A stretch of DNA of 22,162 bases from assembly GCA_003345555.1 (NCBI GenBank), contig PRDJ01000065.1:1-22162 (forward strand). Direction: 5' to 3'. The notes beneath the pieces are model-generated. The model made no database searches and was not told the DNA's origin. It worked only from the letters and a program-made list of their open reading frames with translations. The translations under genes were made by a program, and so were the position numbers. The DNA is from Candidatus Thorarchaeota archaeon (GTDB taxonomy: Archaea > Asgardarchaeota > Thorarchaeia > Thorarchaeales > Thorarchaeaceae). Below, piece by piece: positions 21 to 10,146 of the stretch (positions are counted from its first letter, which is position 1; each line of letters opens with the position of its first letter).

Positions 21-593
21 CTAGGCCTCACCCGGTTTGACCGCTTGAGCTGCGGCTTCGGGTTTGCCCTTCTTCCCGCAGGCAACCTCAGGCAAGAAGA
101 GAATGGCGATGAATATTGCGGCGACGAGGAGTAGTCCAGTCGGCGTTCTCAAGAACAGACTCACATTGCCTAGCTGGGGAATAATGAGCACGACGACGCC
201 TACGATTTCACTGTATGTCCGAGTACCCGGATCTGGAGACCCGTTGTGATCCCCCTGCGTTGTGTAGTAATAGGTGCCATTTACGACTTCGATGGACATC
301 ACTCGGTGAATGATTGCAGTGCCAGGCATGTACGTCGTGTCTTGATAGACAACGATATCGCCGAGGTGTATCTGATCGGGTGCCCTTCTCTGCACGATTG
401 CAAGATCACCCACATGCAACGTGGGCTCCATCGACTGACTAGTAACAACGACCAGAGGGCTTGTTGTTCCCATGGCAAGCATGAACAACCCGTAGCCCCC
501 GAAGGTTGCACCTGCGACAATTAGCATCAGGAAAAGGGTCTTGACAAGCTCCGAATGCTGGTTCCACTTCAGGGCTTTCCTGATTCGCTCCAT
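21..593 (-). CDS. sec11: Signal peptidase I (S26B, Sec11/SipW type)
   Basis: N-terminal TM, then catalytic Ser motif VVTSQSMEPTL-VGDL, His motif IIHRV (Ser-His dyad), TQGDHN motif and C-terminal TM. The track ORF runs to 734, overlapping the divergent gene; the likelier start is ATG 593 (MERIRK). Confidence 0.93.
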   Translation of the reverse strand: MERIRKALKWNQHSELVKTLFLMLIVAGATFGGYGLFMLAMGTTSPLVVVTSQSMEPTLHVGDLAIVQRRAPDQIHLGDIVVYQDTTYMPGTAIIHRVMSIEVVNGTYYYTTQGDHNGSPDPGTRTYSEIVGVVVLIIPQLGNVSLFLRTPTGLLLVAAIFIAILFLPEVACGKKGKPEAAAQAVKPGEA

Positions 594-709
594 GTCCTGA
601 CACTCTAATGCGTTCGGCAGGCGCGAGCTAATAAGCCTGACGCAGTAACTTGGGAGAGCAGCTTTAAACTGCCATTTATCTATCATGTCAGCGCGCGAGG
701 CTCTGTTGA

Positions 710-1870
710 ATGAGCAGTGTTTGGACACGTGCATGGGAAAAGACCCCCAAGATAGACTGCGGTCTCTGTGGGTATGTCAGATGCGCTTGCTTTGCGCGCG
801 CCGCCCTTGTTGGTGACTGCAAATCTGATCTATGTCCCGTGCTTTCAGTTCCCGAGTTTTCGCGCCAGAGCGCAGAACTTGAGTCGCTTCTCAGTCGGGG
901 TGCGCAAGGATTTCCGAAGCCCGCACCGGAGATGCCCAAAGGTGGCGTGCTGCTAACGTCGCCCTGTAAGGATAGAGTTGACCGGGTGATGGCCGAGCTC
1001 AGAGTCTACAATGGCGTGAAGGAAGGAGAACCCGCTCGATTCATGGTTTTCGACTCAACAGTTCTTTGTGATATGCTCGAATGTCTCTCTTCCCAATTCG
1101 AGATTCTGAAGTGCAGTAGGGATTTGGGCTACGCGCGCGCGGATACGGGAGAGACTAGTGTGACACTGTTGCAGGACGGCAGAATCAACATGAGACGCAT
1201 GAATGACATAGACCACGTGAAGCGTCTATTCGCTATGATTGAGAGTGCAGTCATGCCCTCGGTTGTCTGCAATTGCTGCGCCATGGACCTGCTTTCGATA
1301 TTGGCCGATGGGGCCAAAGACGTGGAACATGAGCACACGATTTTCAAAGCCGGAAGCACTGTGAGCCTCAACGTAGAACAGCTCTCCGGTACCTCTAGTC
1401 GAGATGCAATGTTGTCGTACGGAGGAGAATTCTTTGCCGAGGTCGTACGGAATCTAGACGGCATGTTTGATTGGCTGAGGCTGGAAGTTGAGAAGATCCT
1501 AACAAAGGCGCCTTCCAAGGCAGGCAATCGGCCAGACACCAAGAGCGTAAGGTCAATGCTAGTTGCCTTGGCTCACGATGACCAAATCAAAGGTCGGGAG
1601 TCTCTTGTGTATAAAGCTCAAGCCATACTGTGGCTGATTGAGAATGGTCTCAGGGGTTTGGCTCAACTGCAACGCGAGCTGGAGCAGAACTCAGGAGCAG
1701 AGCTCAATGAGCTTCGGAGATTACTGCTCTCTGCGTCCAATGGTATACTGCCTGATTATGAAAGGAACGTGGTGAAGTCCGGACTCCTGTTGAGCTATGC
1801 TCAGATGAGGCGAGTCGATAGGGCGATGAAGGCCTTCGGCTCTTGGACTACCAAGAGAGAGAATCAGTGA
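710..1870 (+). CDS. Fe-S cluster-binding protein (N-terminal putative FeS domain plus COG4871-like metal-binding domain)
   Basis: N-terminal P-KIDCGLCGYVRC..FA...CP motif (CxxCxxxxC-x16-C). Further Cys in SPC, VCNCC and a VTLLQDGRINMRR segment. 386-aa ORF. Confidence 0.7.
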   Translation: MSSVWTRAWEKTPKIDCGLCGYVRCACFARAALVGDCKSDLCPVLSVPEFSRQSAELESLLSRGAQGFPKPAPEMPKGGVLLTSPCKDRVDRVMAELRVYNGVKEGEPARFMVFDSTVLCDMLECLSSQFEILKCSRDLGYARADTGETSVTLLQDGRINMRRMNDIDHVKRLFAMIESAVMPSVVCNCCAMDLLSILADGAKDVEHEHTIFKAGSTVSLNVEQLSGTSSRDAMLSYGGEFFAEVVRNLDGMFDWLRLEVEKILTKAPSKAGNRPDTKSVRSMLVALAHDDQIKGRESLVYKAQAILWLIENGLRGLAQLQRELEQNSGAELNELRRLLLSASNGILPDYERNVVKSGLLLSYAQMRRVDRAMKAFGSWTTKRENQ

Positions 1871-2355
1871 CCGTATCTTCTTGATGCTTCAGCCATGATG
1901 GCGAGTACCTGAGCGGCATCAAGTATTTTGTCGGGTTCCCACTTTTGAACTTCATTGACCTTCACACCTGCGTCCTTTGTGAAGAACTCTGTCAGAATCC
2001 TGAGCTTCTTTGCTTCAGAATCGGCAGCCTTGCTCGCGTCCTTGGCGGTAGGAAAACCTGATGCAGGTACCTCAACGGTGCTCATAACGTACCAAGTAGG
2101 ACTGGCACCTTTCGCTCCAGCAATCTTGACGGCGACCAATTCACCTGGCAATAGGTCCACATCTTCCATGAAGACGATGGCGTCGCCTACCTCTATTTCG
2201 CTGGTGGCCGGTTTCTTTTCTCCCGTGCGCTTCACGACCAATTCTGTGAACTCGAACAGTGCTCTGCGAGCACCTTTCCTGAGAAGCTCAACAGAGGTCT
2301 GTATCACTATTCCCTCGCGCAAGTCTTGTGGTTTACCACCAGTCCGCTTCGACAT
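1864..2355 (-). CDS. Hypothetical protein (163 aa)
   Basis: Protein-like composition. SD-like GGTGAG just upstream of the ATG and a BRE/TATA-like GCAAAGG-TTTAAT 33 nt upstream. Overlaps the convergent gene by 7 nt. Confidence 0.8.
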   Translation of the reverse strand: MSKRTGGKPQDLREGIVIQTSVELLRKGARRALFEFTELVVKRTGEKKPATSEIEVGDAIVFMEDVDLLPGELVAVKIAGAKGASPTWYVMSTVEVPASGFPTAKDASKAADSEAKKLRILTEFFTKDAGVKVNEVQKWEPDKILDAAQVLAIMAEASRRYGH

Positions 2356-2360
2356 GTGGC

Positions 2361-2400
2361 CTCACCAGTTGTTCGTTCAAGCCTCTCATTAAACCTTTGC
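2361..2400 (-). promoter_or_regulatory. Archaeal promoter (BRE+TATA) and SD for the 163-aa gene
   Basis: Minus strand GCAAAGG-TTTAAT (2388-2400) and GGTGAG (2361-2366). Confidence 0.6.
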
Positions 2401-2542
2401 TCCCGAAGGGTACCAACGGTTTCCCACTGCATACATATCGACATTGAACAAATAGGATTTAGTCCCTTGACGTGAAGCTTATGAGAACCGTCGTCCGTCA
2501 GTGCACAGTCACCTGGAACTGGCTGAGTACGAGAGATGAACG

Positions 2543-4129
2543 ATGTCTAAGCCTTGGTTATCTGGCCGGTCTGATGTCTTGGCCCGCAATGGAATGGTCG
2601 CCTCATCCCAACCTCTCGCCACTCAGGCCGGGATCGACATACTGAGGCGCGGAGGCAATGCAGTTGACGCCGCAGTTGCAGCTGCTGCAGTACTGGATGT
2701 CGTGGAGCCGTTCAGCACGGGATGCGGCGGGGATGCATTTGTGCTACTTCACCTCCCGGGACACGACGCTCCAATCGGTTTCAACGGTTCAGGTCGGGCA
2801 GGGTCGCTCGTTAGTCTGCATCACGTTATCAGCCGAGGCTGGACCAGCATGCCAACAAGAGGAGGAGCGCCTGTCACTGTACCAGGAGCCATGCATCTCT
2901 GGTACACAATCATCAAGGAACGTGGTCAGCTTGAGTTCAAGGATGTCCTAGAGCCAGCAATCGGCTATGCACGCGAGGGATTTCCGGTCTCGCCGAGGAT
3001 CTCGTCTGTTTGGAAGGATGCTGTCTTCTACCTGAGGAACAAAGAGGCGCTGGCTGTCTTTACTATTGATGGAAAGGGTCCGGAGACTGGACGGGTCATG
3101 CGCAATGCCGACCTTGCCAAGACGTTTGAAACAGTAGCAAGGGAAGGAATCGAGTCGTTCTATGGAGGTGAGATTGCAGAGGCGATTGCCGAGACAATTC
3201 AGTCACATGGCGGGTTTGTCTCCGTTGGCGATTTGAGGGGACATTCGACGAAGGAAACTACGCCGGTCAAGAGTTCATATCGTGGAGTTCGCGTCTTCGA
3301 GCATCCACCCAACAGTCAGGGATTTGCAGCACAAGTGATGCTTAACATCATGGCGACTTTCGACACATCGATCTTCGCATCACTCGAAGCAGAACGTTAT
3401 CATATCATGATTGAGGCAAAGAAACTTGCCTATTCCGACTTGGAGCAACACAATGCAGACCCGGATTTCTATCATGTACCAATGGAGAAGCTGTTGTCAG
3501 TAGAGTATGCAGTGAAGCGAGCAGAACTTGTCAACGCGAAGAAGGCAATGGACTTGCCTGAGACCGGCATCAGCAGATCCTCGGACACGGTCTATCTAGC
3601 GACCGCGGATGCTGAAGGACGAGCTGTGTCTTTCATAAACAGCCTGTACATGTCCTTCGGAAGCGGCCTTGTCGTTCCGGGCTGGGGCATAAAACTGCAG
3701 AATCGCGGGGCGCTCTTTTCACTGGACCCGTCGCATCCGAACTGCTACTGGCCAGGGAAGCTTCCTTTCCATACGCTGTGTCCAGGAGCCATGTATGATG
3801 ATGATGGCCTGCTGGGCGTCTTTGGAATAATGGGAGGAGATCATCAAGCCGAAGCTCACGCTCAGTTCGTGAGCAACATCGTGGATTGCAGCATGTCCCC
3901 TCAGCATGCAATCGACTTTCCAAGGTTTCGCCACGACCAGCATTCTAATACTGTGAACCTTGAGATAGGCACACCCGGCTCAGTGAAGACAGACCTGCAG
4001 AGGAAGGGGCATAGGCTAGCCCAAGATTCATCATCACAGTTCGGCGGCGGGCAGGCAATAATGAGAATCCACGAGGGATGGGTCGCAGGGTCGGATTACC
4101 GAAAGGACGGACAAGCATCGGGCTACTAG
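2543..4129 (+). CDS. ggt: Gamma-glutamyltransferase / glutathione hydrolase-like (Ntn hydrolase, YwrD type)
   Basis: GMVASSQPLA, GGNAVDAAVA, GCGGDAF and VTVPGA motifs. Autocleavage nucleophile Thr in SSD-TVYL; SFINS, FGSG and GSDYRKDG at the C-terminus. Confidence 0.96.
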   Translation: MSKPWLSGRSDVLARNGMVASSQPLATQAGIDILRRGGNAVDAAVAAAAVLDVVEPFSTGCGGDAFVLLHLPGHDAPIGFNGSGRAGSLVSLHHVISRGWTSMPTRGGAPVTVPGAMHLWYTIIKERGQLEFKDVLEPAIGYAREGFPVSPRISSVWKDAVFYLRNKEALAVFTIDGKGPETGRVMRNADLAKTFETVAREGIESFYGGEIAEAIAETIQSHGGFVSVGDLRGHSTKETTPVKSSYRGVRVFEHPPNSQGFAAQVMLNIMATFDTSIFASLEAERYHIMIEAKKLAYSDLEQHNADPDFYHVPMEKLLSVEYAVKRAELVNAKKAMDLPETGISRSSDTVYLATADAEGRAVSFINSLYMSFGSGLVVPGWGIKLQNRGALFSLDPSHPNCYWPGKLPFHTLCPGAMYDDDGLLGVFGIMGGDHQAEAHAQFVSNIVDCSMSPQHAIDFPRFRHDQHSNTVNLEIGTPGSVKTDLQRKGHRLAQDSSSQFGGGQAIMRIHEGWVAGSDYRKDGQASGY

Positions 4130-4183: not shown

Positions 4184-4876
4184 ATGCCCAAGAATCAACG
4201 AGTCCACTTCGCGGATCATAGGAGTAGGCGAGTAGTCTACGTCAGTAGTTGCCTTCTCGACCAAAACCGGCGCTACCCCGGGATTGCAGTTGGTGCAGGG
4301 GCATTGCGGGATCTATTCTTGCCTCTTGCGGAGAATGGAATTGGTGTCGAGCAGCTTCCTTGCCTAGAGTGCCTAGGATGGGGCGGCGTCTCACGCACTT
4401 CTTCCTTAAGGTTCATGCCGACAATCTTCCGCTATGCCGACTCGAAGCTTTTTCCGATCGTAAGGGGCATCGTACGAATATGGCTGCTAAGATACCGCCG
4501 ACTATGCAAGAAAGTGGTAAAAGCCATCGCGATAGACATGAAGAATCTCGTCGACAACGGCTATGACATTGTTGGGATCATCGCCATGAACGACAGCCCG
4601 ACATGCGGCGTGACCAAGACAATCGGCATCATTGACTTTGTCGCGAAATCGAAATCAATGGGTCTGAAGCTCGAAGATCTGACATCACCCAGCTTCGACA
4701 AGATGAAAGAAGTCCTGCCGAGTCTTCTAGTCACCGGTCGCGGCTTGTTTATGACAGAGCTCCTATTCGCACTGAGACGACAAGCGATTGTACAACGAGT
4801 CTTCGAATTCAATCCATGGAATGACATCAAGACTGAAGCGGGAAGAGTAGTTGGCGAGATTCTTCAAACAAGGTAA
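4184..4876 (+). CDS. DUF523/TudS-related putative [4Fe-4S] desulfidase
   Basis: Three-Cys pattern SSCLLDQN ... QLPCLE ... DSPTCG, typical of 2-thiouracil desulfidase-like (COG5418/DUF523) proteins. Confidence 0.75.
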   Translation: MPKNQRVHFADHRSRRVVYVSSCLLDQNRRYPGIAVGAGALRDLFLPLAENGIGVEQLPCLECLGWGGVSRTSSLRFMPTIFRYADSKLFPIVRGIVRIWLLRYRRLCKKVVKAIAIDMKNLVDNGYDIVGIIAMNDSPTCGVTKTIGIIDFVAKSKSMGLKLEDLTSPSFDKMKEVLPSLLVTGRGLFMTELLFALRRQAIVQRVFEFNPWNDIKTEAGRVVGEILQTR

Positions 4877-4895
4877 TTGGACAGTATCAGAAGAC

Positions 4896-4941
4896 TGGGA
4901 GTGGGAGAGTCTAATCTAAGCGGCAGAGCTCTCCCATCCCA
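4896..4941. terminator. Stem-loop between convergent genes
   Basis: TGGGA(G)TGGGAGAG (4896-4909) pairs with CTCTCCCA-TCCCA (4929-4941): 13 bp with one bulge. Confidence 0.5.
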
Positions 4942-4951
4942 CCGGCGTCGA

Positions 4952-6856
4952 TTATCTTCTACGGGCGAAGACAGTCAACACAACAACAACTACTGCCGCT
5001 ACTGAACCAATGATTACGACATATGTCAGTGTGTCAACGGGACCCGCCGACGTTGTCGTTGTAGTGGTCGTTGTACTAGTAGTACTTCCAGCCCAAGCAA
5101 GAGAGAAGTACGCCCGCGTGGCTATGTTGCCGCTTGTGTCATTGGCAACGACTTTGACTGCGATTGTCTTGTTCTCGAGACCAGATATCGTGGCAGAATA
5201 CACTCCACCTACTTGCGTCATCGGAACGGTCACTGTTTCCGTGTCTAGAATATATTCCAGCATGACGGTATCGACGTTGTCTGGATCGGTTACAGAAGCA
5301 CTGAAGACAACGGGTTGGTCATTTAGCGGAGAGCTCGGAGTCCACTGAACGGCGCTTATCCTAGGACCCACTTCGTCTACGTCAGGTATTGTCCCTTGTG
5401 TGCGATTCGTAACCCAATACAGGAAGTTCTCGACTACGTGAACATTGTCAAAATCGGTCTTTCCGTAATCGAAGTCACTGAAGAATGTGGTTCCTGCTAC
5501 CAACAATCGCAGAGCCCCTACCTGCTCGATTGCCATCAGCGGAGTCTGATTTCCATATTGCCCGTCGTCCGTGTCATCATAGACAACTTGGATTCCCGGT
5601 GGCACTTGGTCGGTCTGATATCCAGTGTGGTCCGCGTAGATTATGGGCAGGACCGGACCGTCGACCGTGAAGTAGAGGCTGGATGGCGAGAATAGTGTAA
5701 TGGAACTCACATTCTCCGTAAGACCGGCAGTTTGACTAGCAGCAGGAATGACTGTGAGGTCGTTGTACCATGGCTGATATGTTCCTGTCATGTAGACGTT
5801 GTCATCATTGATTCGGATGTGAGAACCAATGGCTTCGAGTATTTGATTGGGTCGGGCATCGTCCACATTAGTTGAGAAGTCTCCCCGCCCTGTCAACAGA
5901 ATCGACTTGTTTCCTGAAGAAGCCCACGTAGCGATATTCGATAGTTCATTAGCGGAATACGCATTGAGCGCGCACGTGGCTATCAGAAGGTCGACGTCTG
6001 CCAGCGAGGTCGCGTTGATCGCCGCGTATTGGATTCTCATCTCGAATCCGGCTCTTGCCAGCGTTGCATTGACTGCGTTGAGCTGTGCGCCAGTGGCATA
6101 GTCGTTTGAGTGAGCATAGTCAATGAGGGCAACATATTCAAAGGCATAAGAGACATCTGGAGCATTGATTCCCAGAGTGAGCGTGTGGAATAGACTGAGC
6201 GTTGCATTAATCGCTCTCGAAACGCAGGCCTCAGTAAGTGCTTTGATCGTCGCATTAGTGGCTATCATTCTTGAGTCGCTGCTCGGATATGCCTCAACGA
6301 CAATGTCGTAGTATTGATGTGCGAAGGTGGCACTCTGTACAACCAACTCTGTGACGTTCGGTATGTACGTCTCTGATGGTGTGGTGAGGCTGAGGCTGTC
6401 GAGGTTGTCATTTGTATCTCTTTCGTAGGCAGCATGCGCGGTGGAGTTCGGCCCTGTGTGAGTCGGCGTGCACGGGTCAGAAGAATAGTGCAACATTACA
6501 CCCGCCGCGAAGAACCCACTTTCCCAATTGCCCGCGGTGAAGTTGTCTCTAGCGAAGTTGAACCATCTGGTAGCGGCCTGAGGAGCAGTATACTGTCCGG
6601 TCTCAGGGTAGTATAGGTGATTGTCCCAGTCCTGCCACGTAGTGTCAGGAGTCGTGGATCCCTCCATAATCTCCGGAGTATAGTAGTCGAAGGCACTAGC
6701 CCAGCTAGCATTCGTGATACTGCCAATGGCCTCTGTGGCTATGAACTGATGAGTAGCTAGTCCCCAGGCACTAGCTGGGCTGGCCATGGAAAGTATCACT
6801 GCTACTGGCATCAATGGCACTACAAGAAGCATCAATGCAAACCATTGCTTCCGCAT
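4952..6856 (-). CDS. Secreted, C-terminally anchored Zn-dependent phospholipase C / S1-P1 nuclease-family protein with GldG/IFT52-like (GIFT) and Ig-like domains
   Basis: Signal peptide ending ASA|WGLATH, which places the Zn-ligating Trp at the mature N-terminus. Motifs EGSTTPD, DNHLY, LHYSSD..TPTH and HAAYE follow. Then come a LIDYAHSNDY...L-DVDLL...GNKSILLTG domain, a Thr-rich linker, a TM and RRR. The track start is 6880; a TTTAAT box at 6883-6888 favours a leaderless start at ATG 6856. Confidence 0.85.
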   Translation of the reverse strand: MRKQWFALMLLVVPLMPVAVILSMASPASAWGLATHQFIATEAIGSITNASWASAFDYYTPEIMEGSTTPDTTWQDWDNHLYYPETGQYTAPQAATRWFNFARDNFTAGNWESGFFAAGVMLHYSSDPCTPTHTGPNSTAHAAYERDTNDNLDSLSLTTPSETYIPNVTELVVQSATFAHQYYDIVVEAYPSSDSRMIATNATIKALTEACVSRAINATLSLFHTLTLGINAPDVSYAFEYVALIDYAHSNDYATGAQLNAVNATLARAGFEMRIQYAAINATSLADVDLLIATCALNAYSANELSNIATWASSGNKSILLTGRGDFSTNVDDARPNQILEAIGSHIRINDDNVYMTGTYQPWYNDLTVIPAASQTAGLTENVSSITLFSPSSLYFTVDGPVLPIIYADHTGYQTDQVPPGIQVVYDDTDDGQYGNQTPLMAIEQVGALRLLVAGTTFFSDFDYGKTDFDNVHVVENFLYWVTNRTQGTIPDVDEVGPRISAVQWTPSSPLNDQPVVFSASVTDPDNVDTVMLEYILDTETVTVPMTQVGGVYSATISGLENKTIAVKVVANDTSGNIATRAYFSLAWAGSTTSTTTTTTTTSAGPVDTLTYVVIIGSVAAVVVVVLTVFARRR

Positions 6857-7081
6857 AATGCGTCGGGATGGTTCAATCATGTATTAAACAGTACGCTCAG
6901 GAAATTGCCGGGGCGGCTAGAAGTCCGGAGGCCATTCTCAACCTTCTACAGGGGGTCTGCAAAACAAGACATTTCCGTATCGCCAAAGCACGTGGAGGAG
7001 TATGGTTACTTCAGAAGCCGTCCTCAGGATTATGTTACCATCTTATCCTATGCAAGGCGCCCAAAAGTCCTGAAGTGTGGT

Positions 7082-7094
7082 GAAAGACCCTATA
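7082..7094 (+). promoter_or_regulatory. Promoter-like motif GAAAGACCCTATA (copy 1)
   Basis: Identical 13-mer at 10132-10144 and a 1-mismatch copy at 8600-8613; all three are intergenic and upstream of plus-strand units. Confidence 0.5.
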
Positions 7095-7142
7095 TTTCCT
7101 GCGGGTCATTCTTCGAAAGTATGATAGAGTGTCTTGACTGTA

Positions 7143-7242
7143 CTCGAATGCGAAGGCGGGCGTGCTGCGGACGGTAGCGTCCGTGGGCTGGGCCTGCAGC
7201 CGGGTGGCGTGCACGATGCCGCCCGCCTGTTGTCTATTCGAG
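7143..7242. ncRNA. Candidate structured RNA (long stem with multi-hairpin junction)
   Basis: CTCGAAT/ATTCGAG outer stem and AGGCGGGC/GCCCGCCT inner stem. Three hairpins: GCGGACG-GTAG-CGTCCGT, GGCTG-N6-CAGCC and GGCGT-N5-ATGCC. Markedly GC-richer than the flanks. Confidence 0.5.
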
Positions 7243-7252
7243 GTTTGCTTAG

Positions 7253-7501
7253 ATGTCGGAGGACTCTGTTTCCAGGGAACTGGATGAGGCTATTGAGCGA
7301 GCCGACACCATCGTGGTACCCGGATTCTTGGATAGGTTTGATTCATCGTCTGGCGTCATGTTCAGGGAGCTGGCGATGCGAGAACGCATGTTGCGTGAGC
7401 CGCCTTCAGTTACGAATCTTCTCGTGACTGCCAGTGCAGGACGCGGTACGACCTGTCGGTATCAGGCAAGCCCAATTCTCGCAGGAGTGATTCCAAAATG
7501 A
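7253..7501 (+). CDS. Hypothetical 82-aa protein (possibly a frameshifted N-terminus of the TPR gene)
   Basis: ATG start; ATGA overlap with the next ORF at 7498-7501. Confidence 0.5.
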   Translation: MSEDSVSRELDEAIERADTIVVPGFLDRFDSSSGVMFRELAMRERMLREPPSVTNLLVTASAGRGTTCRYQASPILAGVIPK

Positions 7502-8067
7502 ACAGCGAAACAGATCAAGCAATTGGTGGTATGGATATCGAGCTTCTCAAGTGCGTTGATGGAGTCTTCGTGAAGCAAGTCCGTATCGTCCGGTCTGACC
7601 CAAAGGACGGATGGGCTTGGCTGAGGTTAGCGGGTCTAGCTCTCAGAACAGGTCCCAAGAGCGAAACCGTCGATGCCTTCGAATCCGTAGTGTCAGAAGT
7701 AGGAGATAGCTACTTGGGATGGTTTCTGCTTGGCAAACTTGAAGACCGGCTTGGCTTTTGGCGCAAGGCGGAGTCCGCATACAGGAGAGCGATACGGCTC
7801 GAGAGGACTGATGCAGCTCTGTGGACGAGTCTTGGCGGAGTATTCAGGAGCGAAGGAAGATACCATGCGGCCGAGAGAGCCCTTCTCAGGGCGGTCGAAC
7901 TGAATCCGGAATACTCACAGGCTTGGTTGGATCTTGCATCGGTCTATTCAGAGCTTGGCGACAGCGTTCAATGCAGAGCTGCACTAGAAAAAGCATACGA
8001 CTCAGATTCACTGAGCGTAGCCGAATATGTGAGAGCCCTTGAAAGAAGCGCAAGGGCAATCCGGTAA
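7498..8067 (+). CDS. Tetratricopeptide repeat protein
   Basis: About 4 TPR-like units, e.g. WTSLGGVFRSEGRYHAAERALLRAVELNPEYSQAWLDLA and WFLLGKL...AESAYRRAIRL. Confidence 0.85.
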   Translation: MNSETDQAIGGMDIELLKCVDGVFVKQVRIVRSDPKDGWAWLRLAGLALRTGPKSETVDAFESVVSEVGDSYLGWFLLGKLEDRLGFWRKAESAYRRAIRLERTDAALWTSLGGVFRSEGRYHAAERALLRAVELNPEYSQAWLDLASVYSELGDSVQCRAALEKAYDSDSLSVAEYVRALERSARAIR

Positions 8068-8599: not shown

Positions 8600-8613
8600 A
8601 AAGACTCTATAAG
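8600..8613 (+). promoter_or_regulatory. Promoter-like motif AAAGACTCTATAAG (copy 2)
   Basis: 13/14 identical to AAAGACCCTATAAG at 10133-10146; 43 nt before ATG 8656. Confidence 0.55.
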
Positions 8614-9756: not shown

Positions 9757-9928
9757 GTTGGGAGACCCGTCGAACAACTGCATAAGTCGCACGATTCGTA
9801 TGAAAATGCTCTTTTTCCATTTCAACCAATGAGCTGATTTATATTCAACCTCCGCATTATGTACCATTGTGGTTGGTTGGTCTGCAGGGCTCGTTTTCGT
9901 TACATGCCCTCATTTACGAAACTCCCCC

Positions 9929-10004
9929 CTCCTACCACGATTTACCCTGCGGGCCCCAGCCACACCCTGTGATTACGGGCGTGATAGCGGGAATCTGGTA
10001 GGAG
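9929..10004. other. Intergenic long stem-loop / candidate sRNA
   Basis: CTCCTACCA (9929-9937) pairs with TGGTAGGAG (9996-10004), continued by GATT/AATC and CCC-GC/GCGGG, with an inner CAC-ACCC...GGG-CGTG hairpin. TTTATATT at 9838-9845 lies upstream. Confidence 0.4.
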
Positions 10005-10131: not shown

Positions 10132-10146
10132 GAAAGACCCTATAAG
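10132..10146 (+). promoter_or_regulatory. Promoter-like motif GAAAGACCCTATAAG (copy 3)
   Basis: 33 nt before GTG 10179; matches the copies at 7082 and 8600. Confidence 0.55.

Follow-up and report, generated by a model that had tools for sequence, protein, structure and literature searches.

A predicted structured RNA element preceding a small-ORF/TPR operon in two Thorarchaeota species

An element of ~100 nucleotides (nts), present as a single copy in its own 2.28-Mb genome, appears from its conservation and predicted fold to be a structured RNA that no catalogue lists and that strong purifying selection maintains at the nucleotide level. While of an ordinary kind, it represents a new family. 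We favor the view that it forms a structured 5′ leader on the mRNA of a small-ORF/TPR operon, and put the probability of this reading at about one half. The element is GC-rich, at 73% GC compared to ~52% for the window, that is, the whole 22,162-nt stretch of Candidatus Thorarchaeota DNA analyzed here. The source genome (G000, 93% complete) was compared with those of three congeners (G001, G002, and G003), the last of which is a congeneric Candidatus Thorarchaeota MAG. Very little is known, to our knowledge, about non-coding or cis-regulatory RNA in Asgard archaea, and the element is a concrete candidate for the first cis-acting RNA leader in the group, with promoter, fold, Shine–Dalgarno (SD) sequence, and open reading frames (ORFs) mapped. 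Its value is limited by a two-species distribution, and a neighboring multi-copy small RNA (sRNA) family represents the broader lead.

Conservation between two congeneric genomes

The locus is syntenic in G000 and G003, and the genes situated there are 68–78% identical. Within it, positions 7152–7259 are 86% identical, rising to 88.7% over the 97 nts of 7152–7248, while the intergenic DNA flanking it on either side gives no alignment to G003. The significance of these values was calibrated by comparing 111 kb from G003 against the entire G000 genome, at a mean identity of 76.6%. Only three short islands of at least 86% were found in the 111 kb: the element, an RNA at 9827–9966, and the tRNA-Cys gene. 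Conservation islands between congeneric Thorarchaeota genomes thereby mark structured RNAs as cleanly as tRNA genes.

Protein coding cannot account for the island. The gamma-glutamyltranspeptidase (GGT) and TPR genes differ between G000 and G003 at 52% and 57% of their third codon positions, respectively, compared to at most 6 of 32 positions in any codon phase of the island (binomial p of 3e-5 to 3e-4 vs. third positions); conservation at third positions is thus far too high in every phase. The first-pass annotation, made from the G000 sequence alone, had raised the possibility that the segment is conserved coding sequence of the overlapping frame 7134–7427. This frame was rejected, as G003 lacks an in-frame start near the island and conservation stops at 7259. 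Rather, conservation is of nucleotides: it passes through the SD sequence and the ATG at 7253, persists for four further bases, and collapses sharply after 7259.

On a larger scale, 305–4129 of the window and everything from 7152 onward align to G003, with synteny breaking just upstream of the promoter block described below. The region 4184–7100, which includes a minus-strand gene for a 642-aa Zn-phospholipase-C-like protein, has no counterpart in the G003 locus. Its absence there means that the promoter, the RNA, the small ORF, and the TPR gene behave as one conserved unit.

Searches for known RNA classes left the element unassigned. Rfam 15 returned no matches in the window at gathering thresholds, and nothing overlapping the element at E ≤ 10 across 6850–7550, tRNA clan included; the covariance-model comparison that the first-pass annotation had recommended thus matched no family even at this permissive setting. 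The sole Rfam match at E ≤ 10 in 6850–7550 was a chance LOOT match outside the element, scoring 14 bits against a threshold of 46.4. ARAGORN at default settings found no tRNA or tmRNA in the whole window. With introns allowed, it called no tRNA in G000 or G003, and relaxed thresholds yielded mutually inconsistent noise. Two propositions of the first reading are borne out by these results: that the element is not a canonical tRNA, and, together with its conservation, that it is an unknown RNA, in the sense of an uncatalogued structured one.

A four-way junction revised by comparison

As + strand RNA, 7143–7242 is predicted to fold at −58.8 kcal/mol, compared to −44.2 ± 3.6 kcal/mol for dinucleotide shuffles (z −4.1; 0 of 200 as stable); the minus strand yields −49.5 (z −4.8). 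The GC-rich folded element proposed from the G000 sequence, consisting of an outer 7-bp stem, an inner 8-bp stem, and three hairpins, can indeed be drawn with every pairing that was listed. The G003 sequence supports this architecture in part. The 8-bp stem and hairpin 1 are both kept, the latter with one compensatory change (C7172–G7179 to U–A) and two more changes, both in its loop. The outer stem does not survive, its 5′ arm (7143–7149) not being kept in G003; it is probably fortuitous and not part of the element. Hairpins 2 and 3, as originally drawn, lose one pair each.

A consensus of the two sequences computed with RNAalifold proposes a revised four-way junction without these losses (Table 1), in which the closing stem is lengthened to 11 bp, three hairpins are retained, and 100% of the pairs are kept in G003. 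The closing stem, AGGCGGGC / GCCCGCCU, is the same in both genomes with all 11 pairs standard, and since it is devoid of variation it provides no covariation evidence. The G003 changes at 7190 and 7191 fall in the loop of hairpin 2′, while the former breaks a pair of the original hairpin 2. In hairpin 3′, C7208 is replaced by U, making a G–C into a G–U that can form only in + strand RNA; positions 7215 and 7217, which also change, are unpaired. Nine substitutions in the junction are thereby distributed as six in loops or unpaired segments, two that make up one compensatory pair, and one G–C to G–U change. In all, the two sequences present one compensatory pair, one G–C to G–U change, and no broken pairs, a tally for which shuffle controls (254 of 500) were uninformative, a comparison of two sequences giving covariation no statistical weight.

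A mutant test was also run. Among 3000 random G000 mutants with matched numbers of transitions and transversions, for each of which the consensus fold was re-optimized, the real G000/G003 pair had a better consensus-fold energy than 96.4% (p = 0.036). Taken by itself, the sequence of G003 was no stabler than random mutants (p = 0.29). Structure-preserving evolution of the element is suggested by the paired comparison, and the G–U pairs together with the G–C to G–U change favor the + strand as the one that would function as RNA.

Other motifs were sought within this fold. No K-turn or bulge-helix-bulge motif was seen in the element, and a G-quadruplex was rejected, as one of four GGG tracts is lost in G003. 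A loosely H/ACA-like ACA had been noted on the minus strand. H/ACA guides call for an ACA 14–16 nts 3′ of the pseudouridylation pocket and a K-turn or K-loop in the upper stem. The ACA in question lies in a flank that cannot be aligned to G003, which has no ACA there, and neither species has a GA-GA K-turn; an H/ACA guide sRNA was rejected on these grounds.

Table 1. Features of the element and its surroundings in window coordinates; primes denote hairpins of the revised fold
Feature	Position	Strand	Description
Promoter-like block	7106–7128	+	BRE-like AAAG at 7116–7119 and TATA-like TATGATAG at 7120–7127
Outer-stem 5′ arm, CTCGAAT	7143–7149	+	TCCAAAC at the aligned place in G003; upstream of the predicted start
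Closing stem, 5′ strand	7154–7165	+	7154–7162 pairs with 7220–7228; 7164–7165 pairs with 7218–7219
Closing stem, 3′ strand	7218–7228	+	Partner of 7154–7165
Hairpin 1	7167–7184	+	7 bp, 4-nt loop (GUAG in G000, UAAG in G003)
Hairpin 2′	7185–7195	+	GGGC/GCCU, 4 bp, 3-nt loop
Hairpin 3′	7196–7212	+	GCAGCC/GGC-G-UGC, 6 bp, one bulge, GGGU loop; followed by unpaired 7213–7217
Tail	7229–7252	+	Predicted single-stranded; SD GAGGT at 7240–7244, 8 nts before ATG 7253
Small ORF	7253–7501	+	82 codons; stop overlaps the TPR start (ATGA)
TPR protein	7498–8067	+	189 aa; Pfam TPR families with E down to 5e-15; G003 orthologue 70% identical

Promoter, tail, and downstream operon

The promoter-like block is the sole conserved block in upstream DNA that is otherwise unalignable, its G003 counterpart reading TTCGAAAG..GTAATAGA. 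It sits 24–46 nts upstream of the element, and its TATA-like box is TATGATAG in G000 and GGTAATAG in G003. The conserved RNA begins 32 nts after the first T of this box, similar to the 28–32 nts that separate the TATA box from the RNA in the tRNA-Cys gene and at 9866. Judging from the position of the box, transcription is predicted to start at ~7150–7153. A separate AAAGACCCTATA-type motif occurs at 7083–7096, 8600–8613, and 10132–10146. The first of these, the shared promoter motif of the first-pass annotation (7082–7094), lies 33 nts upstream of the conserved BRE/TATA-like box and constitutes a second candidate promoter that aligns poorly to G003.

On the 3′ side, the tail differs from G003 at two positions up to 7248 (7235 and 7246), and all four of 7249–7252 differ. 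The ATG at 7253 follows the closing stem by 24 nts, a distance too short to accommodate a second archaeal promoter, and no run of four or more Ts precedes the ORFs in either G000 or G003. The element thus occupies the coding strand between a promoter-like block and a start codon, with neither a terminator nor a second promoter intervening, and can be read as the leader of the small-ORF/TPR operon. With no break before the ORFs, any mRNA for the small ORF or the TPR protein would have to carry the element in its 5′ UTR.

The small ORF of G003 begins at the homologous ATG and evolves fast, at 41% nucleotide identity. BLASTP detected no similarity between the small-ORF proteins of G000 and G003, while an ungapped global alignment of the two scored 30 compared to −19 ± 10 for shuffles, as for colinear homologues.

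A structured 5′ leader as the favored reading

If the element is indeed the structured 5′ leader of the operon mRNA, transcription would start at ~7150–7153 from the BRE/TATA-like box at 7116–7127, and the first ~77 nts of the transcript (7152–7228) would collapse into a compact, GC-rich four-way junction made of the 11-bp closing stem and three hairpins. The conserved tail of 24 nts, predicted to be single-stranded, would then present the SD GAGGT and the ATG at 7253. In such an arrangement the junction most likely serves as a cis-acting platform that binds a protein, or less probably a small ligand, and would in this way set how well the operon mRNA is translated or how stable it is.

A protein-binding or stability platform is by inference more likely than a classical riboswitch, as there is no conserved sequestration of the SD or AUG and there are few conserved unpaired bases. 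Comparing the folds of longer transcripts from both species revealed no conserved pairing that hides either signal; these folds differ between the two species, and SD sequestration or switching was rejected. The first-pass annotation had considered the element switch-like on account of an alternative pairing, CGTGC/GCACG. This pairing is present in the sequence, loses one pair in G003 and is weaker there, and is accompanied by no conserved pairing that hides the ribosome-binding site, which weakens the idea considerably. Its further proposal of a 5′-leader regulator of the TPR operon fares better as regards the leader, a leader being favored by position and conservation; the regulation, like the transcription start, the 3′ end, and the strand, is what we infer from sequence.

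Orphan structured 5′ leaders and cis-regulatory motifs, such as riboswitch candidates and the operators of ribosomal-protein leaders, offer the closest comparison. Like them, the element is situated on the coding strand between promoter and SD/ATG, is built as a compact multi-stem junction with a long closing stem, and is conserved far above the following gene, with substitutions mostly in loops. Unlike them, it has no inferable ligand or protein partner, no conserved alternative pairing that reaches the SD, few conserved unpaired bases, only two known sequences, and no Rfam family. Against the leader reading, neither of the two genes that follow, for the fast-evolving small protein and for the TPR protein, hints at a ligand, and the few conserved unpaired bases leave little from which to form a ligand pocket; the second promoter-like motif farther upstream also counts against it.

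Distribution

Among 40 relatives searched by BLAST, the sequence was found in G003 only. A covariance model built from the G000/G003 pair (R1) gave no further true match in 86 genomes of the family or in 151 genomes across the phylum, and with lax filters it found no element in the congeners G001 (85% complete) and G002 (83% complete). One R1 match, in G007 (20.8 bits), was rejected, as it lies inside a 529-aa ORF and has many non-standard pairs. A degenerate, stem-aware pattern applied to IMG/VR, JGI metagenomes, and GTDB species genomes likewise recovered no true homologue beyond G003. Its extra matches were dismissed as chance occurrences in high-GC bacterial DNA, the two from metagenomes scoring at most 12 bits with R1. 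Thus, the element occurs in two of the four species of one Thorarchaeota genus and nowhere else among the genomes searched.

A third TPR orthologue (P0003, 68% identical) is carried by a 2988-bp Logan contig, and R1 gave no match in the DNA preceding more distant TPR homologues. Within the genus, G000 and G003 each have the element together with the TPR orthologue, and searches of G001 and G002 turned up neither; as the latter two genomes are only 83–85% complete, the argument from co-occurrence is a weak one.

A neighboring C-rich sRNA family

The second non-tRNA island of the window, at 9826–9966 on the + strand, is 87% identical to G003 and contains a TTTATAT box at 9838–9844. From about 9866 it specifies an RNA of ~100 nts with a long closing stem that bears a compensatory change of its own, U–A to C–G. 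This RNA belongs to a multi-copy, C-rich sRNA family of Thorarchaeota that was detected in 83 of 86 family genomes with 1–10 matches each and is not in Rfam. A covariance model of the family (R2) matches 9872–9963 at 70.8 bits. The invariant core of the family comprises a UUUCGU/ACGAAA stem and an exposed CUCCCCCCUCCUACCAC, which resembles an anti-Shine–Dalgarno sequence; the 3′ end reads ..GCCACC, and 11 pairs of the 14-bp terminal stem show double changes. A weaker second copy in G001 does not sit at a syntenic locus. Pairing between the element and the 9866–9966 RNA was considered and rejected, as the complementary segment is explained by that RNA's own closing stem.

The family and the element are found in the same genomes and resemble each other in having their own TATA boxes, a GC-rich stem beginning (A)AGGCG, an interior of ~55 nts, and a total length of ~80–90 nts. 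Unlike the family, the element is single-copy and confined to two species, has an SD and ATG immediately after it where the family has U-rich sequence, and lacks the UUUCGU...ACGAAA stem, the CUCCCCCCUCCUACCAC, and the ..GCCACC 3′ end.

Alternative explanations

This resemblance raises the prospect that the element is a stand-alone gene for a trans-acting sRNA, built like the 9866–9966 family and maybe a diverged offshoot of it, which precedes the operon by mere position or with read-through. We regard this as the main rival, if somewhat doubtful. In its favor, conservation starts exactly at the transcript start expected from the upstream box and reaches a level equal to that of the tRNA-Cys gene and the 9866–9966 sRNA; the size and build resemble those of the family, with its own promoter, a long GC-rich terminal stem, and a ~55-nt interior; and 20 conserved, single-stranded nts of the tail could provide a seed region. 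Family copies of G001 and G002 moreover have a stem 5′ strand identical to that of the element, AGGCGGGCGUGC (score 24 vs. 15.5 ± 2.2 for shuffles). However, this match of 12 nts was found post hoc, and R2 does not match the element (7152–7236, E ≤ 10, filters off), from which the invariant core is absent. The shared strand is best treated as a lead to a possible common origin rather than as a demonstration. Two further observations oppose a separate gene: in neither genome is the stem of the element followed by an oligo-T terminator, whereas family copies end in ..GCCACC and continue into U-rich sequence, and conservation of the element runs unbroken into the SD and ATG. A more elaborate scenario, which we hold to be unlikely, would make the element a lineage-specific regulatory RNA of a new riboswitch-like or protein-operator class in Asgard archaea, perhaps a copy of the C-rich sRNA gene stripped of its core and recruited to lead a small-protein/TPR operon that had been newly acquired. 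Were such a capture true, a trans-acting sRNA gene would have turned into a cis-acting leader. Quite improbable, in turn, is that the signal resides in DNA, as clustered palindromic operators bound by a transcription factor, or as some other site of DNA binding or recombination just downstream of the promoter, with no RNA structure. Archaeal repressors often bind at the transcription start site, and the element overlaps the predicted one. Its stems are palindromes in DNA as well, a compensatory change keeps the palindrome on both strands, and both strands fold with similar z-scores. Nonetheless, ~100 bp of near-continuous conservation far exceeds the usual operator, the G–U pairs and the G–C to G–U change are tolerated only as + strand RNA, and the remaining short islands of the comparison are RNA genes.

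The structured leader reading faces two further rivals that retain an RNA and assign it to a known class. It is very improbable that the element is tRNA-like, be it a mimic, a degenerate tRNA, or, where the mRNA begins, a processing signal for RNase P or tRNase Z. The fold originally drawn invites the comparison, having three arms and a core of 73 nts in which an "acceptor" stem of 7–8 bp stacks directly onto an arm of 5 bp, and a tRNA is likewise a four-way junction of ~73 nts closed by 7–8 bp. Yet in G003 a pair is missing from each of the originally drawn arms 2 and 3, the loops are of 4, 6, and 5 nts and vary between G000 and G003, and the D-loop, anticodon-loop, and T-loop features of tRNA are lacking. 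Together with the failure of ARAGORN and the Rfam tRNA models (E ≤ 10) to match, the unconserved loops largely refute membership in the tRNA class and with it the tRNA mimic put forward in the first reading. Scarcely credible is the notion, prompted by an in-frame TGA in G003, that the element is of the SECIS type and directs recoding of the small ORF. There, the small ORF (L016, on the reverse strand of G003:C17) has a TGA at codon 73, and reading through it gives 82 codons with the same ATGA overlap as in G000; G003 also possesses a tRNA-Sec, which at 57.7 bits exceeds the Rfam cut-off. Selenocysteine is in use in most Thorarchaeia (PMC11227280). The eSECIS-like elements of Asgard archaea have a 5′-GA_[G/A]A-3′ core at the base of a 7–15-bp upper stem, an apical loop of 8–20 nts or a ministem, and a location in the 3′ UTR (PMC11227280). 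As in these, the GC-rich closing stem of the element is preceded by GA (AUGA in G003). The 3′ half of the GA_GA core is missing, however, the 3′ side reading GU (7229–7230), the apex is a three-hairpin junction, and the position is 5′ of the ORF, such that the element fails the defining features of the class. Furthermore, G000 keeps the element at 88% identity though its ORF has no TGA, and the best tRNA-Sec match in G000 (40.3 bits) falls below the Rfam cut-off.

The TGA at codon 73 in G003 may be a genuine stop, encode selenocysteine, or reflect an assembly error. As a last observation on tRNA genes, ARAGORN run without intron search recovers only 15 in the 93% complete G000 genome; many G000 tRNAs are probably intron-containing or otherwise missed.
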